From Dehalococcoidia bacterium (GTDB lineage: Bacteria; Chloroflexota; Dehalococcoidia; Lucifugimonadales; UBA3495): DNA of 64,000 nucleotides. The stretch is taken from the NCBI GenBank assembly GCA_965220265.1, contig CBDCPM010000003.1:23673-87672 (forward strand), written 5' to 3'. The position numbers and the translations under genes were made by a program. The notes beneath the pieces were generated by a model, which did not search any database, had not been told where the DNA came from, and saw nothing but the letters and a program-made list of their open reading frames with translations. Below are positions 22,259-63,990 of this stretch, piece after piece (position 1 is the first letter of the stretch; each line of letters begins with the position of its first letter).

Positions 22259-22269
22259 GGCTAAAACTC

Positions 22270-41299: not shown

Positions 41300-41452
41300 A
41301 TGGCACGTGACAAGCGAATGACCGTCATGGTCGAAGCAGAATTCATGGACGAAGTGAAGGAGGCAGCCAGAAATCGGCGGATGAAGATGTCCGAATGGAT
41401 TAGGTTGGTTGTCGAAAACGAGTTGCGGACCGAGAAGGAACGGCGGTCATGA
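41300..41452 (+). CDS. ribbon-helix-helix (CopG/Arc-like) DNA-binding protein
   Basis: MARDKRMTVMVEAEFMDEVKEAARNRRMKMSEWIRLVVENEL fits a beta-strand plus two helices. AGGAAG lies 5 nt upstream. The stop overlaps the next start (ATGA). Confidence 0.65.
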   Translation: MARDKRMTVMVEAEFMDEVKEAARNRRMKMSEWIRLVVENELRTEKERRS

Positions 41453-42612: not shown

Positions 42613-42620
42613 AGGTGAAT

Positions 42621-43751: not shown

Positions 43752-45294
43752 TATAGCTGAGACCTCGGTTTACGAGGTATACCAAGACCAGGATGGAAGC
43801 CTGACGGCGCTAACACATGAGCAGCCCTCTGAAAATGATGATTGCCCTGCTGAATGTGGGGAGAGCAACGACGCCGAGTCCCGGGAAGTCCTCGTCAACG
43901 AGATGGGCGGTCCGGAACCGGAGGAGTTGATCGCCTGGTTGGTGGCCGGAGAATGTCCACTGGATGCTCTGCGGGAATGCGTCAAGTGGATGGAGCAGAT
44001 GTGGCAGAAGCAGGGGCTGCTGGTCGGCGACCATCTTTCGGTGTCGCCCAGCGGTGTGGCCCGCGTGGTCAGGTTCAGACTACCGGTGCTGAAGAGAGAG
44101 TGGGAAGAGCTGCAGGCCCAGGATATTCGTTTCCCGCTGGCACCCGTCGTGAAGGCTTGGAAAGAACGCCCCCAGCTGGTTGAACCTGAACGGCGTGCCA
44201 AAGGTATTATTCCAGCGACCTTCGCTCGGCGGAATGACCGGTTGCCCTTTCTGAATAATCCCCAGCCGCCTGCTTTGCCGGGATTGGTCGAATCAGAAAT
44301 CAGCCAGTCCCATCTTCCCGGATTGATCCCGGACCGGCCTCCGTTACCGGCGCTCCTATCCCTGTACGACCGCGCTGCCGCGCCGCTGAGGCGTGGTCGG
44401 GGCGCGGCCCTGTCGCTACGATTGTTCATCGAGTCCCTCCTCTCTCTACCTGTGGCGGCGCGCGATGGGCGACTGCATGAGCTGCGATTCACGATCAGGG
44501 AAGTTGCTGGTGAATGGCTGGGGTGGAACCTCAAAGACTATCGACCGACCGGCGCACAGAAGGGTTTGGCGCTCCGGCGCGCGGTCAACGAGGTCCGCAG
44601 CATGTTCGTGGATATGCCGCAGGGCGGCCTCTATTATCCAATATCGCCTTTGGCGATCTCCGGGCTGAAGCTTGACGACCAAATGGCTCTGATAGTGTGC
44701 CTGCCATCCGGTTCTGATGTGGGACCGCCAGTGGACCGGCCTATCCTGCGGCAGTTGGGCAAGATCTCCGGCCCAGCATACCGTGCGTACCTTACTTTAT
44801 GTTGCGAGTGGGACCGGGTGGGCGGCCACAATGGCAGGTTAATTCGTCCCACCCGTCCTGGCGTTATGAGAGCTTCCGGTGGTCAGGTGGTGGATGGTCA
44901 GGGTAACGTCGTGCATGGCAAAGGTGAGCGGCCCATTTACTCGCCCTACCATCCCAATGCCATCCGTACTGGCCGGAGCGAAGCGAATCCTGCGCGCTTT
45001 AACTACCGCGAGTATTCTTCGGACGACCTTATCGGTATTTGCTATCCGGCCGAGGTGCTGATTCGAGATTCTGACCTGCGTAAGTACCGACATCGGGCGA
45101 GGAAGGCGGTTATTGACATCGCAGGGATGGGCGGCTGCACCATCGAGCGTCTTGGGAGCAATCCCCGCAACGATGGCCTGCCTTGGAGAGTGATGCCGCC
45201 CGACCCATATTGGCCCCCTGATGTTTACTCTGCCTCACAGCCGGGCGACTCCGACCATCAAGCATTGCCGGTCAACGCTCTCCCTGCCATCTGA
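43732..45294 (+). CDS. hypothetical 520-aa protein; candidate replication initiator (position only)
   Basis: Overlaps the helicase gene by 20 nt. No motif recognised. An iteron-core copy lies 47 nt after its stop. Confidence 0.55.
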   Translation: MLPLRTNIAETSVYEVYQDQDGSLTALTHEQPSENDDCPAECGESNDAESREVLVNEMGGPEPEELIAWLVAGECPLDALRECVKWMEQMWQKQGLLVGDHLSVSPSGVARVVRFRLPVLKREWEELQAQDIRFPLAPVVKAWKERPQLVEPERRAKGIIPATFARRNDRLPFLNNPQPPALPGLVESEISQSHLPGLIPDRPPLPALLSLYDRAAAPLRRGRGAALSLRLFIESLLSLPVAARDGRLHELRFTIREVAGEWLGWNLKDYRPTGAQKGLALRRAVNEVRSMFVDMPQGGLYYPISPLAISGLKLDDQMALIVCLPSGSDVGPPVDRPILRQLGKISGPAYRAYLTLCCEWDRVGGHNGRLIRPTRPGVMRASGGQVVDGQGNVVHGKGERPIYSPYHPNAIRTGRSEANPARFNYREYSSDDLIGICYPAEVLIRDSDLRKYRHRARKAVIDIAGMGGCTIERLGSNPRNDGLPWRVMPPDPYWPPDVYSASQPGDSDHQALPVNALPAI

Positions 45295-45340
45295 TAGAGG
45301 CACAGTAGGGGATGGGTATATTTGAGTAGGGAAAATCGTC

Positions 45341-45360
45341 AAAATGGGACACCAAAACAC
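45341..45360 (-). repeat. isolated inverted copy of the iteron core (one mismatch), just downstream of the 520-aa gene
   Basis: AAAATGGGACACCAAAACAC read directly. Confidence 0.8.
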
Positions 45361-45977
45361 AGGTGTTGCTCTGCAAAGATGGTAGCCGCCATTGGCGTTC
45401 GCCGATGGATGCGGCAGGTATGGTGGATGCTGCGCCAGAGAGCCTGAAGAGGAGCGACTGAACATGGCGATTTGGTGGCCCGGTACAGTAGGGTCGCCGG
45501 CTCTGCGTGATGGACGGCAAGGAGTCGGCATCTGAGCACCGCCTGTCGTCCCACCCACTCATTGGGCGCAGGCGGCCTCGCGATTTCAACATCAATGGCA
45601 GCCGCGCTAGTTTTTGATGGGCCAGCAGGTCAAGGTTGATACGCCTGACGCTCGCGCAGCATGCGCAGGGTTCGCAAGTGTACGTGTCCCACGTCATGTT
45701 TATCCCGCGGGGACAAGGTTCCGTTTTCCGGTCTGGGTGTCGCAACTGTAATTTATCGGGGATGGGACCGGTTTCTAACGTAAAGTTTCGGTCCAAGTAC
45801 GACTGACATCATGGGGATGCGGGATACGGGTGCAATGGTGTAGTGGAACAATTAGAAGTCCTCGATGTATGCGTGGGTATGTGAAGGGGACGCCGTTTCG
45901 TATTTTAAAGCTCTCGGTATCTCCTCTACTTGTCGTCGCGACACCGATGGCAAATTGCCTCAAACCTGTTGGCGGAG

Positions 45978-46050
45978 ATGGTGCAAGCATTGGTGGTATG
46001 TTGATATGGTGCATGGGTAAAGTGGTGCATAGGTACGTTGGCGTGATGCA
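45978..46050 (+). promoter_or_regulatory. cluster of (A/G)TGGTGCA-type repeats upstream of parA (candidate centromere/operator)
   Basis: ATGGTGCA at 45978-45985 and 46006-46013, GTGGTGCA at 46022-46029, GTGATGCA at 46043-46050. A further TTGGTGCATAGG lies at 46946-46957. Confidence 0.5.
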
Positions 46051-46064
46051 GGAGGGCAACAGCT

Positions 46065-46730
46065 ATGCCGGTAATCGCCGTAGTGAACCAGAAGGGTGGC
46101 GTTGGGAAAACGTGTTTGGCTACCAACCTGGCATCCGTTCTAGGCAGCGACGAGCCGGCGGCGCTCCTCCTAGACTGCGATCCCCAGCGCAGCGCAGTGG
46201 GCTGGGGATCGGTGGACCCCCAACCGGATTCGCATCTGACGGTACAGGGTGTGGAAGCGGGAGCGCTGGTCCGCCAGGTGAGAGCAACTGCCGGGGAATA
46301 CCGTTGGATTGTCATAGATTGTCCGCCGGGCATCACCCGCGTGAACGCAGACGCTATCAGGGTGGCCGACGTCGTGCTCATTCCCTGCAAACCGCGGGTT
46401 TGGGACGTGTGGGCCTGTGAGGATATCGTTGCAGCGGTAAAGCTTCGGCAGGCTGGACATGGTGGGTGTCCCAAAGCCGCATTTGTGATCAGCATGGGCC
46501 GGCCCCGCACACGCTTTAGCCAAAGCATTGACGCAGCCCTACAGGAGTTGGGTCTCCCGGTCCTCCAGGCGCGTACCACGGAACGGGAAGCCTATGCGGT
46601 AGCGGCAGGCGAAGGTAAATCTGTGTTGGCTGGCCGGGATCGGGTGGCGCAAGGAGAGATCAGCGGCATCTGCGACGAGATAAAGGAGATGTGTAATGGC
46701 CTTCTCACGAAGACCCGAATCCCCCGATGA
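46065..46730 (+). CDS. parA: ParA-family partition ATPase (small plasmid type)
   Basis: Deviant Walker A VVNQKGGVGKTCLATNLA, then LLDCDPQ and VIDCPPG. Confidence 0.9.
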   Translation: MPVIAVVNQKGGVGKTCLATNLASVLGSDEPAALLLDCDPQRSAVGWGSVDPQPDSHLTVQGVEAGALVRQVRATAGEYRWIVIDCPPGITRVNADAIRVADVVLIPCKPRVWDVWACEDIVAAVKLRQAGHGGCPKAAFVISMGRPRTRFSQSIDAALQELGLPVLQARTTEREAYAVAAGEGKSVLAGRDRVAQGEISGICDEIKEMCNGLLTKTRIPR

Positions 46731-46911
46731 TCAGGAACGGAGAGAGGCATTCCGTGAGCAGGCAGCGGCGCCGGATGTTACCGTGCTTCATTGCCGTATA
46801 CCCTCTGCTGTGCACAGGCGTCTACGCCATCTGGTGGTGGATCAAGATTCCAGCGTGACGGCTATGGTGATTGAGATGCTTGAGGAAGGTCTCCAGAGGC
46901 GAGGTCGTTAA
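46696..46911 (+). CDS. ribbon-helix-helix partition/centromere-binding protein (ParG-like)
   Basis: VTVLHCRIPSAVHRRLRHLVVDQDSSVTAMVIEMLEEGL has an RHH layout. It lies immediately after, and overlapping, parA. Confidence 0.6.
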   Translation: MAFSRRPESPDDQERREAFREQAAAPDVTVLHCRIPSAVHRRLRHLVVDQDSSVTAMVIEMLEEGLQRRGR

Positions 46912-47004
46912 CGAAAACCGCTTGTTGATTTGGTAAATAGGACTTTTGGTGCATAGGTGATCAGGATCAACGGTGAACCGGTGATATGGTAATTGACTAC
47001 ACAA

Positions 47005-49528: not shown

Positions 49529-51262
49529 ATGACCAATGAAACGGGCATCGCGCCCGCCATCCTGAGACTCTACCCGGGGCTGGACGCTGGCCAGCGGGAG
49601 CTGATCCGGCGACTGGAGGGACCGGTGCTGGGCATTGCGGGACCCGGCGCTGGCAAGACCCTGTCGGTGGCGCTGCGCGCTGCCAACGTCCTGCTGCTGG
49701 GCAAAGCCGAACCCAGGGAGCTGCTGCTGTGCACCTACAACGCCGACGCGGCCGGGGAGTTGCGTCAGCGGTTGGACGCAGTGGGCCGGGCGGCGGGATA
49801 CGACGGCGACCTCCGGCGCACGCGCGTCTGCACCATCCACAGCCTGTGCAGGCGGCTCCTGGCCGCGTATCCGGAGCGGGTGGGGCTGAGGCGCGGTTTC
49901 CGCCTGCTGGATAAACAGGAGCAGTGGCGGTTTCTGTACGAGCGGTTCGACGAGGTCTTCGGACCCGATCTTCCCGACCTGGCGGGCCGGGGCTGGCGGC
50001 GGCCCCACTCGGTGGTGGGCAACGCTCTCAAGTATTTCGGCCGGATCTGCGACGAGCTGATCCGGACCCGGGACCTGACCCGCTCGCGCAGCCGGTTTCT
50101 GGCGGCCCTGGGGCGTTGCTACCGGCGCTACGAGAACCTGTTGCTGGATGAGAACGCCGTCGACTTCGCCCACCTGCAGGCCTGGGCCGACCTGCTGCTG
50201 GATGACGACGACGTCGCCGACCGGATCTCCGGCGGCGTACGTTACCTGATGTGCGATGAGTACCAGGACACCTCCTACGTGCAGGAGGGCATCCTGCTGC
50301 GGCTGGCGGAGCGCCACGACAACCTGTGCGTGGTGGGCGACGAGGACCAGAGTCTGTACCGTTTCCGCGGCGCCACGGTGCGCAACATCCTGCGGTTTCC
50401 CGAGCGGCTCCTGGGTTGTCATGCCGTGGAGCTCAACGTGAACTACCGTTCCCATCCCGCCATTGTCAGCGCCTATGACCGGTGGATGGCGTCGGCGGAC
50501 TGGAGCAACCCGGACCCGGGTGGCACGCCCTTCCGCCACGCCAAGACCATCATCCCCCACGACCCGAGCCGGTACGACGATTATCCGGCGGTGATCGCTG
50601 TGGAGGGCCAGGACCCTGAGGATGAGGGAAGGCAGCTGGCGGAGTTGCTGCGGTTCCTGAAGGAGTGTGGGGTCATCGCGGGTTACGATCAGGCGGCGCT
50701 GCTGCTGCACAGCGTGGGGAAGTGGGTCAGCAAACCGTACCTGGACAGCCTGGAGTGCGCGGGCGTTCCCGTCCGCTGCGTGCCGGCTGGCTCCGGCCGC
50801 GGGACGGGGGGCCGTAAGCGTGCCGCCGGGGAGTTAACGATCACGACGGTCCACCAGGCCAAGGGCCGGCAGTGGCCGGTGGTGATCGTGGGTTCCCTGG
50901 ACTTCCACGCCTCCAGCGTGGACCCGGTGGGCCGCAGTTTGGCCCGCCACTGCCGGCGGTCGGACTGGGAGCCCGCCCGGCGCATCGCGGCCTTCGACCA
51001 CATGCGCCAGTTCTACGTGGCCTTCTCCCGGCCCCAGGACCTGCTGGTGCTCACCGCCAGCGGCCCGGTGCACCCCCGCTTCGATCCCATCTGGAAGGAC
51101 GCCCCCCGCTGGACTGAAATGGGCCCGACCCCGCTGGCGGAGCTGGCGCGGCAGCGGTTCCGTACCTTGGGAGACGACGTCGGATCGGAGGGAGCAGTCG
51201 CGCCGACACCACAGCGAATGATCTACCGCTTGCGGCGTCTGGACCTGCACATCGGGCGCTAA
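49529..51262 (+). CDS. compact UvrD/Rep-family SF1 helicase (577 aa)
   Basis: Motifs GPGAGKT (I), TYNADAA (Ia), CDEYQDTS (II), VGDEDQSLYRFRGA (III), VNYRSHP (IV), TVHQAKGRQWPVV (V), YVAFSRPQDLL (VI). Confidence 0.9.
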   Translation: MTNETGIAPAILRLYPGLDAGQRELIRRLEGPVLGIAGPGAGKTLSVALRAANVLLLGKAEPRELLLCTYNADAAGELRQRLDAVGRAAGYDGDLRRTRVCTIHSLCRRLLAAYPERVGLRRGFRLLDKQEQWRFLYERFDEVFGPDLPDLAGRGWRRPHSVVGNALKYFGRICDELIRTRDLTRSRSRFLAALGRCYRRYENLLLDENAVDFAHLQAWADLLLDDDDVADRISGGVRYLMCDEYQDTSYVQEGILLRLAERHDNLCVVGDEDQSLYRFRGATVRNILRFPERLLGCHAVELNVNYRSHPAIVSAYDRWMASADWSNPDPGGTPFRHAKTIIPHDPSRYDDYPAVIAVEGQDPEDEGRQLAELLRFLKECGVIAGYDQAALLLHSVGKWVSKPYLDSLECAGVPVRCVPAGSGRGTGGRKRAAGELTITTVHQAKGRQWPVVIVGSLDFHASSVDPVGRSLARHCRRSDWEPARRIAAFDHMRQFYVAFSRPQDLLVLTASGPVHPRFDPIWKDAPRWTEMGPTPLAELARQRFRTLGDDVGSEGAVAPTPQRMIYRLRRLDLHIGR

Positions 51263-51614: not shown

Positions 51615-52319
51615 ATGAAAGTCGCGAAAACCAACAACAACACAAACACCATGACCCTGGCCGAGCTGGAAGCCCTGGCCCAGTTCGAGGCCAGCGAGCG
51701 GAAGGGCCAGGCGGTGTTCCACCCGTGGGTGGGGCCGGGGTCGCCGGCCCCCCACTGCGTGGTCCTGCCGAAGGACCTCACCCGCATCGCGGTGACCTAC
51801 CTGGACGGCGAGCACTGGGTCCAGGACGGCCGGTGGTACCGCCGCGACGACGATGGCACGGAGACGCCCATCGACGACGTACTGGAACGCTGCTGGCAGG
51901 CGGCCATGGCGGTCCGTTCCCGGCTCAAGAAGCAGCTGGGCATCAACGCGTACGTCGTGGCGGTGGCGGTGTTCCCCACCATGAAGCCCGACGAGAGCAT
52001 CCTGGCCGCGGCGGCCAGCCGCGGCACCCGGGTGCTCTTCGGGATGGACGACCACGTGGAGCGTCTGGCGGCCCTGCCTGGAGAGCAGGACCTGCAGCAC
52101 CCGCTGCAGGCCCGCTACATCCCCGACGAAGCGGAGGCGCTGAGCCGCCCGCCGGCCACGGCCGCGGCGGAACCGGAGACGGCGTCCCTGGACGTTGGCG
52201 ATGGCCGCGTGGTGATCCACGCTGGCACCGTCCACCTCCACCTGCACATCACCATCGTGGCCGCTCCCAACGGCGGCGACGACGACGGGGATGAGTTGCC
52301 GACCGTCCGGGTCTGGTAG
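51615..52319 (+). CDS. degenerate NERD-like paralogue (N4), intact ORF, catalytic residues not conserved
   Basis: ...HCVVLPKDLTRIAVTYLDGEHWVQDGRWYRRD...YVVAVAVFPTMKPDESI... is collinear with N3 and N2 but lacks the D and K of the nuclease motif. AAAGGA lies before ATG 51615. Confidence 0.65.
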   Translation: MKVAKTNNNTNTMTLAELEALAQFEASERKGQAVFHPWVGPGSPAPHCVVLPKDLTRIAVTYLDGEHWVQDGRWYRRDDDGTETPIDDVLERCWQAAMAVRSRLKKQLGINAYVVAVAVFPTMKPDESILAAAASRGTRVLFGMDDHVERLAALPGEQDLQHPLQARYIPDEAEALSRPPATAAAEPETASLDVGDGRVVIHAGTVHLHLHITIVAAPNGGDDDGDELPTVRVW

Positions 52320-52332
52320 GCAGTGGGAGGAC

Positions 52333-52367
52333 ACGCCCGGGCATTGCTCGCCGCTCTGCCCGGGCGT
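52333..52367 (+). terminator. hairpin after N4 (ACGCCCGGGCA - 13 nt - TGCCCGGGCGT)
   Basis: Perfect 11-bp stem. The downstream T-tract is weak (TCCGCTTATT). Confidence 0.5.
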
Positions 52368-52536
52368 TCCGCTTATTGGCGGTATGGCCGCAGGATGTCA
52401 GCTACGCCGATCTCCTGCGGCCGCGCCGCATTTTCGAGGCGTCGGCTTCACCCCATGATCACTGGTCCATCGGCGCAAGGCGGCGAGCGAACCAGCCGAT
52501 GGTCCACGTCCCGTTTTACTCAGAGCCGAGGCTCTG

Positions 52537-52869
52537 TTACCGCAGCGTCCCCATCCGCAGCGCCGGCTGCAGATCTGCCGCGCCGGCAGCAACAGAAGGT
52601 CTGGCGGCGGTTTGTTCCGTCGGGATTAATTGCTTGGCCGCTTCCGTCACCACTTGCATCATCAGCGGCAGTACCCATTGTTTGACAGCTTCCGTGGCCT
52701 GCGCCTTGATGGAGGGGTTGTTGAGGTTGTCGATGAACTCCTTTCCGGTGTAGGTCAGCCTCGCGGGTCGAAGCTCGGATGCAACATTCGGGTCCTGCCC
52801 GTGCGCCGGGGGCTTGTTTTCTTTATTCAATATCATCATCGCCACGCGCTCCAACGTGATTTCTCGCAT
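52537..52869 (-). CDS. hypothetical protein (110 aa)
   Basis: ORF on the same strand as, and downstream of, the 1187-aa gene. No family recognised and no clear SD. Confidence 0.4.
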   Translation of the reverse strand: MREITLERVAMMILNKENKPPAHGQDPNVASELRPARLTYTGKEFIDNLNNPSIKAQATEAVKQWVLPLMMQVVTEAAKQLIPTEQTAARPSVAAGAADLQPALRMGTLR

Positions 52870-52952
52870 GGGGCGGAACGTGGGCGCATCTTTGGAGTCG
52901 GGAGACCAGCAATCGACGAAACCGCGGTCGATGGCAAAGCCACGTGGTATCG

Positions 52953-53138
52953 TCAGGCATCGACGCTCACCTCAGGCATACCGGGCAACTCCCAGGGTTC
53001 GACGTCGACCATTTTGTCGTCATCGTCGCCGGAGGTCTTGAGCCACGGCAGGACATGATAACCGTCCATTGCTTCGAGGATCTGCTGGAACGTATCCAGA
53101 TCGAACTCGGTGCGTTCTACATTGAATTCGCTTGGCAT
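52953..53138 (-). CDS. hypothetical small acidic protein (61 aa)
   Basis: Starts 19 nt after the stop of the 1187-aa gene, with GAGG upstream. Strongly acidic (DDDDK, many D/E). Confidence 0.5.
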   Translation of the reverse strand: MPSEFNVERTEFDLDTFQQILEAMDGYHVLPWLKTSGDDDDKMVDVEPWELPGMPEVSVDA

Positions 53139-53156
53139 GAAAAGCCTCGACTGGAC

Positions 53157-56100
53157 CTATGCATCCAGAGTGGACACGTCGAACCGGCCACTGGCTAGCA
53201 GGATTTCCAGTGCGCGCTCGGCGTTTTCGTGCACTTCCGGCTCACCGCTGGCCAGACCCGCTCTAAGAATTCGTTTCGCCGGCTCAGGTGTTATGTAGGC
53301 ATCGTCCTGGAACCTCACCACCAGCTTGGCAAAGCATTCGACGACTTTGCCGGTGTGCTCCGGAATCATTTCGGATATCGGCGCCCAGCGGTGCCAGAAG
53401 GAACCGCGGTCAAATTGGCATACGTCCAGAGCGCGGGAGTAGGCGTCCAGACGCCATTCTGCGCTGAGGCAATTGGCCTCCAGCCAGGAATCAAACCGCG
53501 CCAGCTCGCTGGGATCGCCCACCTCCAAGCGCCATTCGAAGAAGGCCTCATACCTGCTCTTGACGGCTTCGTCCAGTTCTCCTTTGTGGTGGCACAGGAT
53601 CCGGCCCACGTTTTCGAACAGGCCCGCCCAGTGCTGCCATCGTCCAACGGTGGCCAGGTAGTAACTTTCCAGCGGACTGCCGTCTCCCAGCAGCGGAAAC
53701 ATTCCGCTGGCGTGATATACGAGCAGTCGCTGACCAAGGGTGTCCAGCACCCGGGAGAGCGAGGGATCCTGTTCGGCGTGCGCCGGTATATTCTGCGCCG
53801 CGAAGGCGAAGTCGTCCACGAAGATTTCAAAGAGCCGCCGGTAGGGGCGATGATAGTATAGGAAAACGCCGAATGGGGCGATCCAGTCGCGCCAGTTGTG
53901 CCGCGGAAAGAAGTCGGACTTACGGGCCAGGGCCCAGGATTCATCCATGGCCAGGGCATCCAAGTATCCGATGCCCAGGAAAGCCCTCTCTGGAGTGGTC
54001 AGCGGATACTGAGCGGTCGGGGAGAATCGCCCCTCCAGGGTCGCCGTGATTGCCTCAACATCGGCCTGCGGATCATGATTCCGCAGCCACCGGCCAAACT
54101 TCAACAGGTCAGCCAGCGCGCGGCTCCGGGTGTTGTTGATGGCTCGCACAAACGCGTCTTCATGTCCTACGAACTCCCTCTGGTCCTCGTCCAGGTGCCA
54201 GTCGTATTCGGTGCACAGCGCCTCGAGCAGGGTGGGTAATCTGTCTTGGGCGACCAGCGGCATGGCGAGTCCGTTTTCCAAACCTACCGAGATCACCTTG
54301 CCCAGCAGGTCGCCAACCGCCCGGCGGCAGTTGCCCCAATAGGGATTGTTCCTTGTCCGGTCGCTGGGTTCGAGGCTGGGCTGGCGCTCCCGATCGGGGT
54401 GTGAGAGCACCCATTCGCAGAATTCCAGCCATTGGTCGAGATCACTTAGATCCTGCGCTTCAACTCGAGAGTTTATTGCACCGAGTATCTTGCGGACGTA
54501 GATGGGGCGTTCGATCCGGTGCCGGTTTCCGAGCCAGAAATGCAGACGGTCTGGAGTTGGGATTACCGCCCGTTGGAAGAGTTGCCCAAATGCGTCCGAC
54601 AGTGCGTCGACGGTGACCTCCGTCAGCCGATCTTCCGTATCGACGTGTTCGTCATCCCAGTTGTTGATGTAGGACAGCAGGTCCTCGTCTTCCAGGCCTG
54701 CCAGTTCTTCAACCGAAATGGGGCTGTGTCCGCTGATCATGCCCGCTCGCATGGGTCCAACCGGCATGTAATCCTCGTCTGAAACGGATATGCCTGCCTC
54801 TTGCTCCAGGTCCTGGAGGTAGTCCCGATACTTTCCGAAGAGTACGTTCCGGAACGGCTGCAGCTGCAGCCGGTGGAAGTTGCGTCGACGTCGTTCGAAC
54901 AGCTCCTCGGTGTAGTGCTCGCCCATAGACCTGAGGGTTGCCTCGCGGTCCGGCCCGTCCAGGATGGCTTCAAAGATGGGAGTCAGTTCCTCTTCAGTGA
55001 GTAGGTCATAGCCCAAGGTCTCGCAGGCGGAGCGCAGCATCTGCTGGAACTCGTAGTGGTATTGACGGTGGCCATGATCCTGGTGTTGGAGGATCTCCTG
55101 CCGTATCCAGGGTTTCGTCTGCTCATCGGGATGCAGCGCGTAGAGGTGCTGGCGCAGCCGTCGGAAGATCCGCCACCGCCGGTTGCGCAGTTCCTCATCC
55201 AGTGCTGCGGCCGAGTCTGGATCTCTCTCCCAAACCTGCTCACAGGCGTGCGTCATTGTGAGCACGAGGGTCTCGCTTGGTTGCAGCACCGCATCCGACG
55301 GCCCGTCCAGGCGCTGATACCAAATTTGCGAATAGTCCTCATCTCCGTCCCGGCCGAGTTCATCCTGGTGAAGTGTCTGCCGGATCAATCGGTTCAAGGC
55401 GGAGATGAGGAGGCGTGCGCTCTGATAGGGTTCTGCGGCGGCGAGTTGTCGAATGCCTTGTTCCATCAGCTGCAGATAGTCCCATTGCTCCAGGCGAGGA
55501 ACAGGCTGCAGCGCGGCCATCCAGTCGTGCGGGTTCTCTCTCCGCCGGGCCGCCTTTTCATCCCGTTCAGGGTCTGGGGCGAAATACACGATGCTCTTGG
55601 CGAGCTCCAGCGCGGCCGCTGTCTGTCCTTCGTCGGTCCAGTGAACCAGAAGTTCGACCAGCCTGTAGGACAGGATCGGCGTGAAAGCGCGCGTACAGCG
55701 GAGCGCTTCAGGCAGCAGTTGCGCCGATTGTTCCCCGGGGAGTTGCCGCGCGATGTCCAGTATTTCGTCGGAGATGCTCGCATTGTTGAACCTCGGCAAC
55801 TGCTGCACAATCGCTATGACTTCGTCAGGGACCAGCGCTGCCATCCTGACCAGGTACCGCATTGGCCACCAGGAAGGTACATGGACCTGTCCATCATCCA
55901 GTTCCTGGATGCTGGGAGGATGGGCGAAATATCCACGTTCTTTGAGTATCCCCACCCAGGACGGATCGGATGCACGGTTGAAGAAGAACGCGTAGTTTGC
56001 CCCCCGGCGGTCGATCAGCTCGAAGATGCGGTCCACGTCGGCCGTAGTTCTGCCGGCGTTGTCCAAGATTGACTGGATTTCCTGCTGGTCCTGGGCGGTG

Positions 56101-56720
56101 ATGGGCGCCAGCAGGTCCAACACGGTTCTTTCCAGAGTTCTCAGACAAGCGTCAAAGGCCTCTTCATCGTAAGACTGGTGATGTGCGAACGATTCCAGTT
56201 GTCGCCACAGGAGCACTATTGCGTCCCGTCTCCGGTCACGAGTCGCGCTGTCCATCTGGTCAACCAGAGGATCGACATTCGCCACGGCACCCTGGATTTG
56301 TTCACTACGGGTCGGCTGCTGGCTCAACCTGAAATACTCGGCGACCTCCCGTAATGTCTTGGCCAGACGGAGATCGATCTCTTCGCCTTCCCATCCGTCA
56401 GGGTAGCGCTGCAGGTCCTTGACGATGCGCGCGTTCAACTCCCTGCGTTTACCGTGGAGATTGAGTCGGCTGCCCGCGGGCAGATTGCTTTCCCCTACAG
56501 CCCTCGGCAATTTTTCCAAGAGCTCTCGCAGCGACTGTGCAGCTTGCGAGAACCGATCAGGGTTGTATGGGTTGTTCACTGCGTAGAGGGTGCCAAGGTA
56601 CCACTGGCTCAATCGGTACCGGTCGCTATCGTGCCTTTGGAGCGCCACAACGACCGCTCGTTGTGGCGCGGAAAGCTCAAGAGGCATCGCCTCCCTGGAT
56701 CCGTAGAAATCTTCCGTCAC
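53157..56720 (-). CDS. large (1187 aa) predicted all-alpha-helical protein of unknown function; N-terminal ~200 aa HEPN-like
   Basis: Long uninterrupted ORF with ordinary, non-repetitive composition, unlike shadow ORFs. It has no nucleotide-binding or known catalytic motif except WRQLESFAHH (R-x6-H) at aa 172-181. The helical-repeat character comes from sequence inspection only. Confidence 0.7.
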   Translation of the reverse strand: MTEDFYGSREAMPLELSAPQRAVVVALQRHDSDRYRLSQWYLGTLYAVNNPYNPDRFSQAAQSLRELLEKLPRAVGESNLPAGSRLNLHGKRRELNARIVKDLQRYPDGWEGEEIDLRLAKTLREVAEYFRLSQQPTRSEQIQGAVANVDPLVDQMDSATRDRRRDAIVLLWRQLESFAHHQSYDEEAFDACLRTLERTVLDLLAPITAQDQQEIQSILDNAGRTTADVDRIFELIDRRGANYAFFFNRASDPSWVGILKERGYFAHPPSIQELDDGQVHVPSWWPMRYLVRMAALVPDEVIAIVQQLPRFNNASISDEILDIARQLPGEQSAQLLPEALRCTRAFTPILSYRLVELLVHWTDEGQTAAALELAKSIVYFAPDPERDEKAARRRENPHDWMAALQPVPRLEQWDYLQLMEQGIRQLAAAEPYQSARLLISALNRLIRQTLHQDELGRDGDEDYSQIWYQRLDGPSDAVLQPSETLVLTMTHACEQVWERDPDSAAALDEELRNRRWRIFRRLRQHLYALHPDEQTKPWIRQEILQHQDHGHRQYHYEFQQMLRSACETLGYDLLTEEELTPIFEAILDGPDREATLRSMGEHYTEELFERRRRNFHRLQLQPFRNVLFGKYRDYLQDLEQEAGISVSDEDYMPVGPMRAGMISGHSPISVEELAGLEDEDLLSYINNWDDEHVDTEDRLTEVTVDALSDAFGQLFQRAVIPTPDRLHFWLGNRHRIERPIYVRKILGAINSRVEAQDLSDLDQWLEFCEWVLSHPDRERQPSLEPSDRTRNNPYWGNCRRAVGDLLGKVISVGLENGLAMPLVAQDRLPTLLEALCTEYDWHLDEDQREFVGHEDAFVRAINNTRSRALADLLKFGRWLRNHDPQADVEAITATLEGRFSPTAQYPLTTPERAFLGIGYLDALAMDESWALARKSDFFPRHNWRDWIAPFGVFLYYHRPYRRLFEIFVDDFAFAAQNIPAHAEQDPSLSRVLDTLGQRLLVYHASGMFPLLGDGSPLESYYLATVGRWQHWAGLFENVGRILCHHKGELDEAVKSRYEAFFEWRLEVGDPSELARFDSWLEANCLSAEWRLDAYSRALDVCQFDRGSFWHRWAPISEMIPEHTGKVVECFAKLVVRFQDDAYITPEPAKRILRAGLASGEPEVHENAERALEILLASGRFDVSTLDA

Positions 56721-57172
56721 TTTTGTATTCGTGCTCCTCGTTCGTATAGAAAAAGGTTGCCTGAGAATCGACCGAACCGCAACTCTGATTGTCGCGAGTC
56801 ACACGGTCTCATAGTTCAGACCGAGCGCGGGCCATAAATGGTTCCCGCTCTTAGCAACCAAGCCGTTCCATACCCCCTGTCCAAACCGAGCTGCCGCACC
56901 ATCGCCGGTAGCTGATGGCGAGTGTCGGGGGTATCTGACCAGTTGATGATCGCTGACGCGTCGAATGGATCCATGGACTCAGTTTATCAGCGACGTTGTC
57001 CGCAAGCAGGATGTTGCGGCGGGTACGTCCAACCATCCGAGAAAGGCATTCACTAACGAAAACGGTTCACCGGGGAAGATCCTGACAGGGCGAGCTTCAG
57101 TATCATGGCTCGCAAGATCAGACGTTACCGTACCGCCAAGTACAACCTCTCCGCCGCAGAGGTCTGGGCCCA

Positions 57173-57385
57173 TTACCAAGGACAGGGCCTCATCAATCCC
57201 CATTCGATGACATGGCCGCGGCTGTCACGGCAAGCTGGTGTGACGTAGATGCCCACCAACCGCCGTCGTATTGCGTAGTGTATGCGGGCGGGAGCCACGC
57301 CCAACTCTACCGCCAACTGGGGCACCGACCGTGGGCCATGGCTCAGGCAGCGCCCGATTTGACGGCACAGGTGGTCATACCCCAT
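57173..57385 (-). CDS. small helix-turn-helix protein translationally coupled to the recombinase
   Basis: Its start overlaps the recombinase stop (TGATG). PRSVPQLAVELGVAPARIHYAIRRRL looks like an HTH. Confidence 0.55.
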   Translation of the reverse strand: MGYDHLCRQIGRCLSHGPRSVPQLAVELGVAPARIHYAIRRRLVGIYVTPACRDSRGHVIEWGLMRPCPW

Positions 57386-58404
57386 CAGGCTTTCTTCTTC
57401 CGCTTGCGGGCATAGAGCTGGGCGACGACGCTGCGTCCGGCGAACTGAGACCCGACGTACCGGGCCACCGTTTGCGACGATTTCCAGCGGCCCACCGCCT
57501 GGAGCTGGGCCATGGTGGCGCCGGCGTCGGCCAGGTCGACGGCCATGCCCACGCGGCAGCTGTGGCCGCTGTAGCCCTCGCCCAGACCGGCAGCCAGCGC
57601 GGCGGCGGCGATGCGTTCGCTGATGGCGGCCGCCTTCAAGCCGAAAAGTCCCTTCTCGTCTTTGTCTCTCTCAAGCATCTGCCGTTGTCTGGGCCGGATC
57701 CGGTCCAGTGCCTTCATGGTGGGGGGTCCCAGGTAGAGCACCACGCCCTCGCCCTGCTGGTCGGTCTTGGACCAGGGTATGGTCAACCGGCCGGAGCCGT
57801 CCGGCTGGGGGGCGATGCGTTCCCAGCGGACTTCGGCGGCTTCGGAGCGGCGCAGCAGAGCGTCCCGCATTACCGAGATCAGGGCGATGTCCACCAGGCC
57901 GCGGCGACGGGCATTGGAGGGACGCTCCATCCCGCGGTCGGTCTTTCGGGGGATGCAGGCGGTGTCCCGGATCTTCTCCAGGTCCTCGGCGGTGAGGGGT
58001 TTGGCGCGTTTCTCCCGCTGTCCCGCTTCCTTGGCGCGGTTGACGAACCCCTTGATGACCATGGCCACCCTGTCGTTGCAGGGGCTGTCCTTTCCCGCCG
58101 ATCTGTGTTTGGCGGCGATGCTGGAAGCGTAGCCTCTCAGGGTGTTGGATTTCTTGCGGCCGTAGCCCTGTGTGAAGATGAATACGGCTACGGTTTCCGG
58201 GTCAGCCGGCAGGGATTGGAATCCCCTTGCCTCGCACCACTTCACGAAGGTCTCCCATTGCTGGTTCTGCTGATAGCGCGTGGTTTCAGCCCGACTTTCC
58301 TCGGCGACCTGGTTGACGAGTTTCTGCATCAGCTGACGCATGTTGGCCAAGTTGTCGGAGGGCGGCGGAGCCTCGGGCCCAGTAGTTAGTACGGGTGTAG
58401 TCAT
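57385..58404 (-). CDS. tyrosine recombinase, Cre-like subfamily
   Basis: LLRRSEAAEVRW (Arg I), SKTDQ (Lys), GHSCRVGMAVDLADAG (H-x-x-R), GRWKSSQTVARYV (Trp and catalytic Tyr). The N-terminal WETFVKWCEARG is like Cre. Confidence 0.85.
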   Translation of the reverse strand: MTTPVLTTGPEAPPPSDNLANMRQLMQKLVNQVAEESRAETTRYQQNQQWETFVKWCEARGFQSLPADPETVAVFIFTQGYGRKKSNTLRGYASSIAAKHRSAGKDSPCNDRVAMVIKGFVNRAKEAGQREKRAKPLTAEDLEKIRDTACIPRKTDRGMERPSNARRRGLVDIALISVMRDALLRRSEAAEVRWERIAPQPDGSGRLTIPWSKTDQQGEGVVLYLGPPTMKALDRIRPRQRQMLERDKDEKGLFGLKAAAISERIAAAALAAGLGEGYSGHSCRVGMAVDLADAGATMAQLQAVGRWKSSQTVARYVGSQFAGRSVVAQLYARKRKKKA

Positions 58405-58428
58405 TTTGTTTTCCTTCGGGATTAGCCA

Positions 58429-58529
58429 CTAAAACTTACAATGTGGTGTTTGACCATACATAATTTTTATAATAAAATCAAGAATAGTATAAAATCTCTC
58501 GGTATTAGCAATTAAAAACGGAGTATTTT
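58429..58529. promoter_or_regulatory. very AT-rich island with two direct repeats GGATTAGCCACTAAAAC / GGTATTAGCAATTAAAAAC; candidate recombination site and/or divergent promoters
   Basis: Read directly. GC drops sharply relative to the flanks. The repeats lie at 58429-58445 and 58511-58529. Confidence 0.4.
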
Positions 58530-58658: not shown

Positions 58659-59642
58659 GTGGGGTATGATGGGATAATGCGGCCAGATCGAAAGCTCACT
58701 GACGACCAGGTGCGCTACGTCCGCACCTCGCTGAAATCCTCGGTCCAACTGGCCGCTGAGCTGGCAGTGGACCGGAAGGCGATCGACCGGGTCAGGCACC
58801 GGGAAACCTACAAGGATATCCCCGATGCGCCGCCCACCGCCGATCCTCCCGCCGCCCTGCGTCGCAACGACTACGTGTTGGGCGACGGCAAGGAGCTGAT
58901 GGGCCAGTTGCCTGATGGATATGCGGAGACCGTGGTTGCCATGCCGCCCTTGTTCCGGCCGCCGCACGCGAACCAGTCCCAGGTACGGAAGGCCAGGTCA
59001 AGCTATGTCGATCGCCAGAAGTCAATCATCCGGGAGGGTCTGCGCGTCGCCGGGCCCAACGGGGTGCTGCTATACGTGCATCGTTACGACCTGACGACCG
59101 ACCTGTTGGACGTTGGTCCCGGCGGCATTGCGGAGTTCTCCCCGGAGCAGGTCATCGTCTGGGATACCTTGACCAAAGAGGACCCACCCTCTGCTACCAT
59201 GCGCCGGGTCCCAGGGCAGCATCGCGCCATCTATGTTTTCGCCGGCGACCGCTGGCGCATCCCGCTGGAAATCAGGGACGAAGTCGCAAGCCGGGGAGAC
59301 ATATGGTGCTTCAAAGCACAACTCCGGGACGGTGTCTTGCGGGAATTCCCCGAGGAACTGGCCGATCGTCTCATCGCCATGGGCCGCGGGCGGGTGCTGG
59401 ATCCCTTCGCCGAGTTGGGCGCCATTGGACTGGCGGCGGCCAGGAAGAACCGGGAGTGGACTCTCTTCGGCAAGAGCGCCGTGGACCAGCGCACGTTTCG
59501 ACAAAGCCTGCAGGCCTTTTACCGCGAACGTGCTTTCCCAACAAAGACGGCGGTGCAATCCATGGGTCCGCGTCGGCAGAGCCGGTCCACCGGCCAAGGG
59601 CGATCGCGACCGGCTCCGCCGGATACGAAGCCGCTCTTCTGA
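58659..59642 (+). CDS. HTH plus N6/N4 DNA-methyltransferase-fold protein with degenerate catalytic and AdoMet motifs
   Basis: Collinear with the beta-class N6_N4 MTase layout. GDGKELMGQLPDGYAETVVAMPPLF occupies the place of ...DPPY, and FPEELADRLIAMGRGRVLDPFAELGAIGLAAARKNREW the place of ...DPFxGSGTT.... The start may be ATG 58677. Confidence 0.65.
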   Translation: MGYDGIMRPDRKLTDDQVRYVRTSLKSSVQLAAELAVDRKAIDRVRHRETYKDIPDAPPTADPPAALRRNDYVLGDGKELMGQLPDGYAETVVAMPPLFRPPHANQSQVRKARSSYVDRQKSIIREGLRVAGPNGVLLYVHRYDLTTDLLDVGPGGIAEFSPEQVIVWDTLTKEDPPSATMRRVPGQHRAIYVFAGDRWRIPLEIRDEVASRGDIWCFKAQLRDGVLREFPEELADRLIAMGRGRVLDPFAELGAIGLAAARKNREWTLFGKSAVDQRTFRQSLQAFYRERAFPTKTAVQSMGPRRQSRSTGQGRSRPAPPDTKPLF

Positions 59643-60212: not shown

Positions 60213-60635
60213 ATGTTCATCGATACCAACATCCTGGTGAACGCCCGCATCCGCGAGGCGCCGCACCACGAGGTCGCCAGGGCCGGTTTGGAAAGTGCCC
60301 TTCGCGGTCCCGAGCCTCTGCGCATCAGCCGCCAGGTCATGCGCGAGTATCTGGCGGTCGTGACCCGTCCTCAGCCCTGGCCGGTGCCCATAACCCGCGG
60401 GGAGGCGCTCGACGACATCGGCCGCCTGAACCGGGTTTTCGAGGTGCTTGAGGATGGCCCACGGGTGACCGAGGCGCTGGTGACCCTGTGTCGGGATGTT
60501 GAGGTGGGAGGACGGCAGGTTCACGACGCCAACATCGTGGCCACCATGCTGGCCCACGGCGAGCGCCGGCTGCTCACTTTCAACGGCGCGGACTTCCGGC
60601 GCTACGAACAGCGAATTGAACTGGTAACCGCCTGA
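60213..60635 (+). CDS. vapC: PIN-domain toxin
   Basis: MFIDTNILV... (Asp 4), ...HDANIVATML..., ...LLTFNGADF. This is the classic acidic quartet spacing of VapC. Confidence 0.85.
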   Translation: MFIDTNILVNARIREAPHHEVARAGLESALRGPEPLRISRQVMREYLAVVTRPQPWPVPITRGEALDDIGRLNRVFEVLEDGPRVTEALVTLCRDVEVGGRQVHDANIVATMLAHGERRLLTFNGADFRRYEQRIELVTA

Positions 60636-61299: not shown

Positions 61300-63990
61300 T
61301 CATGCGGTGAGGTCGACCGGCGCCCAGCCGTCGCCACGGTAGCGCCAGGCATGGCGAGGTCCCTGGCCGAGGATGACCACATCCCTGCAACCGGAGCCCA
61401 GTATCCGCTGGGCCACGTCCATGGGAAACTCGCTCACCGGCTTGACCTCCGCGTAGGCCTCCACGCCGTTCAATACCAGCCGGAAATCGGGCGTCCAGCC
61501 GTCGCGGCGAACCGGCTCGTACTCCCAGACGATCCCGCGGTTATCGAAGTACGCCGCCCAGCGGGCCTCCAGCTGGCTGCGGAAGGTGACGCCGCCGTAC
61601 TCGGTGATGACGGGGGTCTGCTCGGGACTCAGAGTGTTTGGCGCCACGGCAACCGCCCACCGGTGCAGCGCGGTTGCGGTTTCCTCCCGCAGCAGCCGAT
61701 CCCGCTCCGAACGCTGGCCCGGCTGTCGGGCGATCTCCAGGAGCGCCTGGGTGTATTGGCCCAGGTTGTCGGCGATGGCCTTTGATAATCCCAGGCCGCC
61801 GCCCACCTTGTCCCAGATGACGATGGCGCGGTGTACCTCGCTGCTGTGCCCGTCGCGAACCACCTGGACGTTCTGGTGCGTGGTGCGGATGTCGGCGGGA
61901 TGGATCGATTCCCGGCTGCACATCACCGTCCGGAGGACCCGGGCCACGTCCCGGCGTGTGTTGGCGTCGTCGAACCAGTCCTCCCAGATGATGATCACCG
62001 TCGCCGTGGTGCGCAGGTTGGAAACCACTTCAGGGATGCCCTCGGTGCTGTAATTGACATCCCGCCATTCGGCGTCGCCGGGTTCCCGTATGGAGCAGCC
62101 GATGATGCGCTCCCAGGCCACGGCCTGGGCGTGGGTGCAGTACTCCAGGTGTCCCAGCGCAGACACACGGGGCTGCTGCAGGGTGACGGTGGCCCCGCTG
62201 CGGGTGATGGGCCGGGTCTCCCGCGGCGGAGCGTGACGCGCCGTGATCACCGTTTCGCCGCCCGACTCCCGCCAGGCCAGGATGGAATAGGACTGCTTGG
62301 CGTGGAAGTAAGTGGCCAGCGGGTAGGCGTCCCGCGCCGCCTCCCGGCGGGTCACCTCGCTGGTCAGCAGCTCCATCTCACCACCGGGCATCAGCTGCAC
62401 GATGCGGGCCCGACCATCGGCAGCGTCGCGGATGTCGTTGCGGTGGGGCTGCTGGGGGTCCCCGGTCTGGAACTCCGGCGCGTAGTGGTCGCCCCGGGCG
62501 ATCTCCCGGAGCGTCTGGGGCAGCTGCTCCGGCCAGGCGTCGGTGGGCGACGGGATGGCGCGCTCCATGCCGTTGAGGTCCGTTTCCTTGGCCAGGCAGC
62601 GGCCGTGGGTGTTCTTGATGTTGGGATTGGACGGATAGAGCCGGGCCGGCTCCACGGGCTGCTCCCAGTACGCCGCCAGGCTGTCCTCGTGGAACTGGAA
62701 GGCATGGCGCGGCGCCACGATGATGAACCGCCCCGGGCCGGTGCGTCCCACCCGTCCGGCCCGCTGCCTGAGGCGTCCCACCGAGTGGGGCAACCCCAGG
62801 TTGAAGCCCACCTGCAGGTCGGGGATGTCGATGCCCAGCTCCATGGCGCTGGTGCTGGCCAGTCCACGAATGTCTCCGGCCCGCAGGGCCTCCTCGATGC
62901 GCTCCCTACGCATCAGGCCCGACCGGTAAGCCATGGCGTCTCTGGACTCCACGATGATGGCATCCTCGGTGATGCTGCGGGCCGCCTCGATGCCCGCCGC
63001 GGCGCGTTCCGCCAGCTGCCGGTCGTCGATGAAGGCGATGTACGACCGGTCGGGATCCTCGCTGATCACCTCCCGCACCGCGGCCTGCAGGTCCCGCCAG
63101 CCCTCGTCATGGGGCTCCCGGCCGACGACGTGCTGCACGGTCAGATCGGCCCGGGGACTGCCGTTGTAGCGGTCGTCCACCACCTGGAACGGCAGGCCGG
63201 TGAGGGTCTCGAGGTGCTGGGCCGGGTTGTGGATGGTGGCGCTGGCCGCGATCATTCGCAGCGGCTCGAACTGCGACATCAACTCCCTGCGCTTCTGCTG
63301 CAGCCGGTGCAGCAGGTAGAGGCAGTGGGTTCCCAAAGCGCCGTCATAGGTGTGAGCCTCGTCCAGGATCAGGAACGCCAGGTTGGACAGGAAGCGGCGC
63401 ACGTTGTACTGGGTGTTCTGCACTTCTCTCAGGTCGTGGCGCAGGGGCCGTTTGCCGTAGAGGGGCTCCGAGTAGGCCATCAGCCACTGCTGGATCACGT
63501 CGGGGGTCATCAGGGCCAACCGGGTGCGCTGCAGGATCTGCCGCCGCTCGGTGAGGTCGCGGACGTCGCCGTCGATCCGGTTGATGCTCTCGGGGTCCAG
63601 TCCGGTGGCCTCCGCCAGGTTCCGCCAGCGGACGACCTGGTCCCGGGCCAGCGCCTTGATGGGATAGATGGCAATGGCCGTGGCGTTGGGATGGGTAGCC
63701 AGGTGGTGCAGGGTGGGCGCCTGGAAGACCAGGGACTTGCCGCTGGCGGTACCAGTGCTGATCACCAGGTTGTGACCCTGGCCGAACAGCTCCAGCCCCA
63801 TGGCTTGGTGCAGGTAGAGCTGACCGCCGCCCGTCTGGGTTTTCACCTCAGGCCAGACGGGACTGGCGCTCAGCCAGGCGGGCGCGTCGCCGTGGCGGGC
63901 CCCTTGGCCGGGGATGGTAATCTCGCTGTGAATGTCCATGTGACCCGGTCGGGTCAAACCCCGTGCGCTTCGTTGATGCGGTCGCAGCAC
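61300..63990 (-). CDS. DEAD/DEAH-box helicase fused to a DUF1998-like domain and a C-terminal PD-(D/E)xK nuclease domain
   Basis: STGTASGKSLVF (motif I), ILDEAHTYDG (II), AASATI (III), RQRAGRVGR (VI). The middle AYPLATYFHAKQSYSILAW is like the MrfA/YprA DUF1998 core but lacks the Cys cluster. C-terminus is FRSQLEARWAAYFD...WTPDFRLV...AYAEVKP. The start is GTG 63990 or ATG 63939, close to the window edge. Confidence 0.8.
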   Translation of the reverse strand: MLRPHQRSARGLTRPGHMDIHSEITIPGQGARHGDAPAWLSASPVWPEVKTQTGGGQLYLHQAMGLELFGQGHNLVISTGTASGKSLVFQAPTLHHLATHPNATAIAIYPIKALARDQVVRWRNLAEATGLDPESINRIDGDVRDLTERRQILQRTRLALMTPDVIQQWLMAYSEPLYGKRPLRHDLREVQNTQYNVRRFLSNLAFLILDEAHTYDGALGTHCLYLLHRLQQKRRELMSQFEPLRMIAASATIHNPAQHLETLTGLPFQVVDDRYNGSPRADLTVQHVVGREPHDEGWRDLQAAVREVISEDPDRSYIAFIDDRQLAERAAAGIEAARSITEDAIIVESRDAMAYRSGLMRRERIEEALRAGDIRGLASTSAMELGIDIPDLQVGFNLGLPHSVGRLRQRAGRVGRTGPGRFIIVAPRHAFQFHEDSLAAYWEQPVEPARLYPSNPNIKNTHGRCLAKETDLNGMERAIPSPTDAWPEQLPQTLREIARGDHYAPEFQTGDPQQPHRNDIRDAADGRARIVQLMPGGEMELLTSEVTRREAARDAYPLATYFHAKQSYSILAWRESGGETVITARHAPPRETRPITRSGATVTLQQPRVSALGHLEYCTHAQAVAWERIIGCSIREPGDAEWRDVNYSTEGIPEVVSNLRTTATVIIIWEDWFDDANTRRDVARVLRTVMCSRESIHPADIRTTHQNVQVVRDGHSSEVHRAIVIWDKVGGGLGLSKAIADNLGQYTQALLEIARQPGQRSERDRLLREETATALHRWAVAVAPNTLSPEQTPVITEYGGVTFRSQLEARWAAYFDNRGIVWEYEPVRRDGWTPDFRLVLNGVEAYAEVKPVSEFPMDVAQRILGSGCRDVVILGQGPRHAWRYRGDGWAPVDLTA

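Follow-up and report, generated by a model that had tools for sequence, protein, structure and literature searches.

A predicted single-protein defence system in a Dehalococcoidia bacterium that appears to join a Dsr1/Avs7-type sensor to a putative nuclease head

The defence protein Dsr1, validated as a system of one gene, uses a SIR2 NADase head to deplete NAD+ (10.1101/2021.12.14.472415). A January 2026 preprint (PMC12803255) reports that Dsr1 and the STAND protein Avs7 have homologous sensors, puts the number of proteins carrying this TPR-like Avs7/Dsr1 sensor at about 9,000 and lists NADases, nucleases and kinases among their heads, along with a 'HEPN-like RNase'. In the same preprint the phage major capsid protein is reported to trigger both SeAvs7 and EcDsr1, and effector mutations to abolish defence. 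Here we describe a large gene in a 64,000-nucleotide stretch of DNA (hereafter the window) from a Dehalococcoidia bacterium (GCA_965220265.1, contig CBDCPM010000003.1, positions 23,673 to 87,672 of the forward strand). On grounds of homology and analogy its product is rather likely to be a single-polypeptide protein of the abortive-infection type, directed against phages or mobile elements, which belongs to the Dsr1/Avs7-sensor superfamily and carries a predicted nuclease head.

The large gene and its sensor

The link to Dsr1 was made through the PADLOC profile of that protein (model PDLC04166) and not through a SIR2-fused relative. The window protein itself matches positions 730-1011 of the 1227 in the profile with 19.1 bits (Table 1), and this weak match was the one hit that PADLOC gave for the protein. 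Its relatives score far more strongly: in P0045, which is 45% identical and has the same architecture (homologous proteins and their loci are referred to by P and L numbers), the match spans 775 residues, with amino acids (aa) 250-1024 aligned to profile positions 337-1066 at E 2.6e-17. Paralogues match at E 3.8e-26 to 1.5e-10, the first of these values belonging to P0139, whose different head is a PIN_12 domain, and head-less forms match at 2e-15 (P0140) to 5e-12. Because these relatives score so strongly, the homology of residues ~206-1187 to the C-terminal sensor of Dsr1 is, at the level of profile comparison, beyond doubt. Overall the positions matched run from ~306 to 1066 and exclude 1 to ~300; the matched part of Dsr1 is presumably the one that follows its N-terminal SIR2 region.

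Two further relatives were retrieved by tblastn with the window protein. The first is a 1493-aa protein encoded on a Halocatena salina plasmid (L066, NZ_CP096023.1, 78261-82742), in which a helical N-terminus and a P-loop NTPase (VVGPGGVGKST) precede the homologous sensor, an Avs7-like architecture by sequence; its gene adjoins one annotated as encoding a HEPN domain protein. The second, a 1090-aa Streptomyces plasmid protein (NBC_00212), has the sensor together with a compact version of the same head. It may be related to a Streptomyces sensor protein whose head is called 'HEPN-like' in the preprint (PMC12803255). A preliminary description of the window had proposed an effector joined to a giant sensor and had tentatively likened the latter to DSR or DUF4020-like proteins. 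The sensor idea was essentially right, as the Dsr1 profile and the Halocatena and Streptomyces relatives indicate, and the proposed architecture is borne out by the sensor homology together with the exchangeability of the N-terminal ~200 residues discussed below.

That the large gene is real, and far beyond a chance open reading frame (ORF), follows from its more than 200 full-length homologues (42-96% identity), from a ratio of non-synonymous to synonymous substitution rates (dN/dS) of 0.26 against the sister locus L004 and from a confident, all-helical AlphaFold2 (AF2) model. The coordinates first given for the ORF and for the WRQLESFAHH stretch within it were both correct. The true start is probably the ATG at 56687 (M12, 1176 aa), as gene callers and homologues have it, because residues 1-12 show no conservation and an identical database protein is 1176 aa long; a GGGAGG Shine-Dalgarno sequence lies 5 nucleotides (nt) upstream of this ATG.

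Searches of the whole protein with Pfam, NCBIfam and PADLOC returned only sub-threshold matches, among which those to Swm2, ParE, DUF1451 and MCE were dismissed as noise. No NTPase, protease or transferase domain was found with these three collections, so the initial impression of an ORF devoid of recognisable motifs holds for these activities. The AF2 model, built from a 116-sequence alignment, has a mean predicted local distance difference test score (pLDDT) of 84.5 and is almost wholly helical, as had been foreseen. Foldseek comparison of this model with the PDB gave HEAT/ARM solenoids only (MMS19, karyopherins, CAND1; E ~1e-5, template modelling (TM) score ~0.2). As modelled, then, 'helical-repeat solenoid' is a correct description that carries no functional information, because the matches are generic HEAT/ARM proteins with low TM scores. 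Sequence and profile searches of the PDB with the full protein and the family profile gave nothing meaningful, and no Dsr1 or Avs7 structure was among the PDB matches, those of Foldseek included.

These results could be read as those of a housekeeping or structural HEAT-repeat scaffold standing outside conflict systems, since Foldseek gave no significant match beyond generic HEAT/ARM proteins of eukaryotes and no enzymatic Pfam domain in the window protein rises above threshold. We regard such a role as most improbable. Profile searching led to the PADLOC Dsr1 profile instead of a housekeeping or structural family, and the sensor is homologous to that of a validated defence protein; the head is swapped with nucleases, and the genes occur patchily over many phyla, as one copy in scattered metagenome-assembled genomes (MAGs), in variable neighbourhoods rich in mobile elements and restriction-modification (RM) genes.

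The N-terminal head and its variants

The head (aa ~13-205) is, to judge from alignments, a discrete and exchangeable module, because PIN_12, a P-loop NTPase or a head encoded by its own gene can accompany the same sensor. When the family profile was run with HMMER against 1.84 billion representatives, it retrieved 5581 proteins at E<=1e-3 and 1964 at E<=1e-30. Among the best 150 of the 5581, three forms are about equally common: proteins that align with the profile over their full length; others, equally long, in which the alignment begins only at ~200 and the 200-aa N-terminus is a different one; and proteins of ~960 aa whose alignment starts no earlier than ~243. The N-termini of the second form are PIN_12 (PF16289) nuclease domains (E 1e-12 to 1e-23). 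For the third form one member was looked at, P0140, and a 214-aa gene was found to overlap the start of its sensor gene. In the split system at L074 (588-7886), and likewise at L075, the 214-aa head gene runs 29 nt into the start of a 961-aa sensor-only gene, and both are placed directly downstream of a Type I HsdR gene; the separate head has co-linear counterparts of the motifs of the fused one (aromatic-Y-x-G-A, S-x3-R-D/E and A-H). Extra N-terminal fusions were also seen, in P0022, P0023, P0030, P0031 and P0033, in P0048, P0085, P0111 and P0117, and in P0179; their kinds are an XRE-type helix-turn-helix domain of ~175 aa (1363-aa proteins), DUF2283 and a tandem duplication of the W-Y...S-L-R-E-L block.

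The boundary of the head was set by paralogues in which the alignment does not begin before aa ~200 or ~243, and an insert at aa ~80-128 is missing from some homologues. 'Predicted nuclease head' is the label best supported by sequence comparison, because the head occupies the position held by PIN_12 in the paralogues and by SIR2 in Dsr1, and because the domain, like SIR2, is shared with Argonaute defence systems; SIR2 is also found in prokaryotic Argonaute (pAgo) systems (10.1101/2021.12.14.472415). The window protein matches Pfam PF18165 (pP_pnuc_1, labelled 'predicted pPIWI-associating nuclease') with 17.3-22.2 bits, below the gathering cutoff of 26.3 bits, while homologues exceed it (P0045, 31.0; P0048, 28.8; P0057, 28.0; P0073, 27.5; P0047, 26.4). 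The matches mostly cover profile positions 9-41 only (9-109 in P0099) and fall in the head on the motif block W-Y-x-G-A...N-P-D-R...S-L-R-E-L-x-E-K; the PADLOC model Aga_Nuclease, for an Argonaute-associated nuclease, gives weak matches to the same ~30 residues. A literature search found no papers on pP_pnuc_1 or PF18165, and the text of the 2013 pPIWI-RE paper contains no description of the domain. PIWI and pAgo genes were neither among the most frequent neighbour families (~57 loci) nor within the window.

An AF2 model of aa 1-262 has a pLDDT of 84.3. Foldseek found nothing significant for the head in the PDB, the best match being the HEPN protein Csx1-Crn2 (8y7f; E 0.62, probability 0.21, TM 0.19), and a head-only profile found no match there either. 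Nor does the head match any HEPN family in Pfam, or the large protein any SIR2 family in Pfam or NCBIfam. The preliminary description had read WRQLESFAHH as a HEPN ribonuclease motif, R173-x6-H180, and had singled out these two residues for a conservation check. In column counts over 116 sequences the histidine stood and the arginine did not: H180 and its neighbour H181 are both present in 116/116, while R173 is Arg in just 27/116 and position 174 in 41/116. The proposed HEPN motif finds no support in these counts, and HEPN membership of the head is unproven.

The conserved positions lie elsewhere. Over the same sequences W40, G43, N53, S63, R65, E66, E69, K70, D150, H180 and H181 are invariant, so that the helix bearing S63, R65, E66, E69 and K70 (116/116 each) and the terminal His pair of WRQLESFAHH provide candidate catalytic or binding residues (Table 1). 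R65, E66 and H180 are retained in the distant Streptomyces homologue, and the A-H pair both there and in the split-gene versions of the head.

By homology and analogy we propose that the sensor would hold the head inactive until a phage-derived protein was bound, most likely, as for Dsr1 and Avs7 (PMC12803255), the major capsid protein. Binding would then release or oligomerise the head, which would degrade nucleic acid, RNA or DNA, through the invariant R65/E66/E69/K70 and H180/H181, and the infection would be stopped. A head without catalysis would call for another scheme, in which it served as an adaptor or regulatory domain for a separately encoded effector (PIN, Fic or ATPase) and the solenoid as sensor or scaffold. 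No relative of the head, by structure or by sequence, has proven catalysis; some heads are polypeptides of their own; PIN genes follow the large gene at a spacing of 3 nt in four Poribacteria loci; and Fic or ATPase genes flank others. We nevertheless consider an adaptor quite unlikely, in that no neighbouring effector is conserved throughout the family, bona fide enzymes (PIN_12; SIR2 in Dsr1) fill the same position on the sensor and the invariant Arg/Glu/Lys/His/His set fits an active site.

Genomic setting and the downstream gene

A scan of GTDB genomes yielded 62 loci, 59 of them non-redundant, in Dehalococcoidia/SAR202, Poribacteria, Binatia, Nitrospirales, Latescibacterota, Verrucomicrobiota, Gemmatimonadota, Acidobacteriota and other groups, many of them in sponge-associated MAGs. 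Among the loci compared no neighbouring gene is conserved family-wide. An RM gene lies within 6 kb of the family gene in 23 of the 59, across many phyla, and many of these loci are Type I, III or IIG arrays on one strand. At 11 loci a Type III Mod gene is present, usually directly upstream and sometimes overlapping by 4 nt, with Res downstream, and at four of the Type III loci, in Poribacteria (L022, L025, L041 and L042), a PIN gene (~9609-10088) begins 3 nt after the stop of the large gene and separates it from Res. The Type I pattern, with HsdM and/or HsdS upstream, is seen at five loci, the fullest arrays adding an AAA_15/21 ATPase, Fic and a probable HsdR. With X for the large gene, the tight arrays on one strand read Mod-X-(PIN)-Res and HsdM-HsdS-AAA_15/21-X-Fic-HsdR; other loci have Eco57I/MmeI-type (Type IIG) or DUF1156 methylases. 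RM methylases, ResIII, PIN, integrases and transposases lead the Pfam counts over 216 flanking ORFs, and around an 86%-identical homologue there are GmrSD, SIR2-STAND, PIN and transposase genes. The family is thus placed preferentially in or beside RM loci and defence or mobile islands in many phyla, a qualitative enrichment which agrees with the defence setting expected of homologues at the outset. As a separate observation, at L036 (9893-14536), L052 (9879-14411) and L007 (10464-15110) the family gene is directly followed by a giant ORF of ~1500 aa; two downstream neighbours match the archaeo-eukaryotic primase (AEP) domain of TOTE conflict systems, and their identity with the L036 and L052 ORFs is inferred.

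This placement recalls the RM-linked HEPN modules, accessory defence genes with ABC-type ATPase and Fic companions (PMC3710099), and raises the question of whether the protein is an RM guard like PrrC or RloC, a second-line module that would physically monitor the neighbouring RM complex and fire its head when a phage anti-restriction factor disabled that complex, instead of recognising a structural protein of the phage. In several phyla and in Type I, III and IIG systems the gene does overlap or closely adjoin RM genes, being placed after hsdM-hsdS or between mod and res, and AAA_15/21 and Fic, which co-occur with it, are companions of those HEPN modules (PMC3710099). Set against this, ~60% of loci, the window included, are without an adjacent RM system; the RM types vary, which leaves no single conserved partner surface; and the homologous Dsr1 and Avs7 sensors are stand-alone capsid sensors (PMC12803255). 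We therefore judge guarding of RM to be unlikely. A more speculative proposal, to which we give a similarly low probability, takes the pP_pnuc_1-type head to be a new and possibly metal-independent nuclease fold shared by Argonaute systems and Dsr1-type sensors, and the RM-embedded members to be guards. Its active site would be formed from two helices, by R65/E66/E69/K70 and E176/H180/H181, and the guards would fire when phage anti-restriction proteins disabled the flanking Type I/III enzymes. Such guard logic, if true, would not be that of Dsr1 and Avs7, for which capsid sensing has been shown.

The preferred reading, a phage-triggered sensor with a nuclease head, has several points to contend with. 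Support for this family comes from homology, analogy and context, and its defence function is predicted. At 19 bits and over part of the profile, the window protein's own match to Dsr1 is weak, and the link is transitive through its homologues. The ~60% of loci without an RM neighbour count here too, as does the position of the window copy outside any RM operon. The head lacks both the canonical HEPN motif and, by fold (best E 0.62) or by profile, any significant relative among solved structures; for this last reason nuclease activity is a Pfam-level prediction, and the head may instead be an adaptor.

The 61-aa and 110-aa ORFs that follow the large gene, at first taken for two tiny genes of which the acidic one might encode an antitoxin or inhibitor, belong to one DUF2513-like gene of ~188 aa that has been broken in two. 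The lesions are a change of TGG to TGA at 52953-52955 and a 1-nt deletion ~12 nt downstream (near 52941/52942); a single ORF of 188-199 aa is found at L004, L072, L068 and L073, and for the intact protein at least 57 homologues (158-199 aa) were found, many of which match DUF2513 (PF10711). Both halves have a dN/dS of ~0.2, and because of this the break may be recent (a pseudogene) or an assembly error. An operon of three genes for addiction or abortive infection, in which a HEPN toxin is curbed by one or both small acidic downstream proteins, would account for this purifying selection, for a constant ~19-nt spacer to the downstream gene and for five loci of a Chloroflexota subclade that carry the pair, at one of which (L068) it forms a two-gene block moved to unrelated flanks. 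The distribution largely refutes this model, and we think it very improbable. What lies downstream is one gene, broken in the window while the large gene is intact; tblastn of the small ORFs against the 62 loci found them in L004 only, so the trio is not conserved across homologues; the DUF2513-like gene is missing from ~55 of 60 related loci, among them those of the 86-87%-identical homologues (L005, L071) and all loci at <=62% identity; and the HEPN arginine is unconserved. The partner also occurs without the large gene, directly upstream of a gene with a T5orf172/MUG113 domain (L069, 7001-8750; L070, 4106-5855), a pair that may be a separate two-gene module. The constant spacer and the L068 block make the linkage genuine, as far as gene order can tell, within the Chloroflexota/SAR202 subclade. 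The gene is best seen as a clade-specific accessory and not as a required antitoxin or restraint, since the large gene is intact here beside a broken copy.

Around the large gene the backbone is mobile-looking. Besides the genes of Table 1 the window holds ParA, Toprim and AAA_25 genes, and the order integrase-large gene-188-aa gene recurs, L004, L072 and L071 being named for synteny, with the 188-aa gene missing beside the large gene at L071. The surroundings first described are confirmed for UvrD, recombinase, PIN toxin and DEAD helicase, and not for NERD, which was not detected at E<=1e-3 in the window ORFs tested; a plasmid megablast of the region gave no match. The window PIN gene clusters with those of L022, L025, L041 and L042. 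Directly after the integrase is a 70-aa ORF (57173-57385, minus strand) with a counterpart in the same place at L072 (1705-1917), which may be an excisionase-like gene. A 2450-aa ORF occupies 15080-22432 (minus strand) in a region of 62-71% guanine-plus-cytosine (GC) content; the GC content of the window ranges from ~0.56 to ~0.74 (39000-47000 versus 11000-16000 and 23000-28000), a spread that suggests a mosaic or horizontally assembled element.

Upstream of the large gene, 175 nt (56708-56882) are 84.6% identical to the locus of the 86%-identical homologue, where the flanks differ, and ~75 nt of the leader are common to L068. This leader possibly serves as a promoter or in regulation. No sigma-70-like promoter match was found in it, the promoter and terminator scan did no better than on shuffled sequence, and an Rfam scan of 52000-58500 found no family.

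Table 1. Coordinates of the large gene, its parts and its neighbours in the window
Feature	Position	Strand	Basis or remark
Large gene	53157..56720	-	1187 aa from GTG 56720; ORF and translation, homologues, dN/dS, AF2 model
Helical-repeat sensor (aa ~206-1187)	53160..56105	-	Dsr1 profile via homologues, Foldseek HEAT/ARM, alternative-head fusions
PADLOC Dsr1 profile match (aa 662-969)	53814..54737	-	E 5.5e-5
Head domain (aa ~13-205), presumed effector	56106..56684	-	pP_pnuc_1-like; boundary from paralogues, AF2
Motif S63-L-R65-E66-L-L-E69-K70-L71, helix 56-76	56508..56534	-	Candidate catalytic/binding residues
WRQLESFAHH (aa 172-181)	56178..56207	-	H180 and H181 invariant, E176 near-invariant, R173 variable
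Conserved 5' leader/promoter region (possible) of large gene	56721..56882	-	Nucleotide identity with homologue loci
Broken DUF2513-like gene (~188 aa intact)	52537..53138	-	Intact in sister loci
Fragment, 61 aa	52953-53138	-	Starts 18 nt past stop of large gene
Fragment, 110 aa	52537-52869	-	Second half of DUF2513-like gene
Tyrosine recombinase, next upstream of large gene	57385..58404	-	Pfam Phage_integrase
UvrD helicase	49529-51262		
N6_N4 methylase (orphan)	58659-59642		
PIN toxin	60213-60635		
DEAD helicase	61300-63990		

Comparison with known systems

The architecture and the probable sensing logic are not new, being already in the literature for Dsr1 and for the wider sensor class (PMC12803255). 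That sensor class, with varied non-SIR2 effectors, being described there, the earlier suggestion of an undescribed system holds only for the present combination of head and sensor, which was not met in the papers searched, any more than its occurrence in sponge-symbiont phyla or its place within RM operons. The Dsr1/Avs7 sensor would thereby be extended to a head known so far only as a predicted Argonaute-associated nuclease, and the sensor class would be tied to RM operons in the little-studied SAR202/Dehalococcoidia, Poribacteria, Binatia, Nitrospirales and Latescibacterota, many of them sponge symbionts. The family offers a compact system for asking how one sensor scaffold governs unrelated effectors, and R65, E66, E69, K70, H180 and H181 are supplied as precise candidate residues.

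Among described proteins the likeness to Dsr1 is in design as well as sequence: both are single large proteins without an NTPase, with an N-terminal effector of ~200-300 aa followed by a helical-repeat sensor of ~900 aa, the sensors are homologous and the defence-island lifestyle is the same. They differ in that Dsr1 has a SIR2 NADase head, whereas the head here is all-helical and of pP_pnuc_1 type, with no SIR2 signal. The protein likewise resembles the wider Avs7/Dsr1 sensor set in its shared sensor and in the non-STAND forms with varied heads recorded in the preprint (PMC12803255), in the searched parts of which an enrichment at RM loci was not met; unlike Avs7 proper, which has a STAND NTPase, it has no NTPase domain detectable with Pfam, NCBIfam or PADLOC. 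In the PIN_12 paralogues (P0139, P0149 and P0151 among them), of ~1190 aa in total, everything C-terminal of aa ~200 is the same sensor and aligns with the family profile at E = 0, and a PIN-like nuclease head replaces pP_pnuc_1. With PF18165 and Aga_Nuclease the head shares the N-terminal motif block, five homologues scoring above the gathering cutoff; it departs from them in its fusion to a Dsr1-type sensor, in the sub-cutoff score of the window protein and in neighbourhoods which, where examined, contain no Argonaute or PIWI gene.

Two other groups invite comparison. PrrC, RloC and other RM-embedded HEPN ribonucleases also lie within Type I/III RM operons, often with an ABC-type ATPase and Fic/Doc (PMC3710099), whereas the present protein lacks both an ABC ATPase fusion and a conserved R-x4-6-H motif and has a giant solenoid sensor. 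DSR2 similarly has an N-terminal effector joined to a C-terminal alpha-solenoid, to which a structural protein of the phage binds (PMC11850899); it has, however, a SIR2 head and a different sensor family, the PADLOC Dsr2 profile matching neither the large protein nor the relatives tested.

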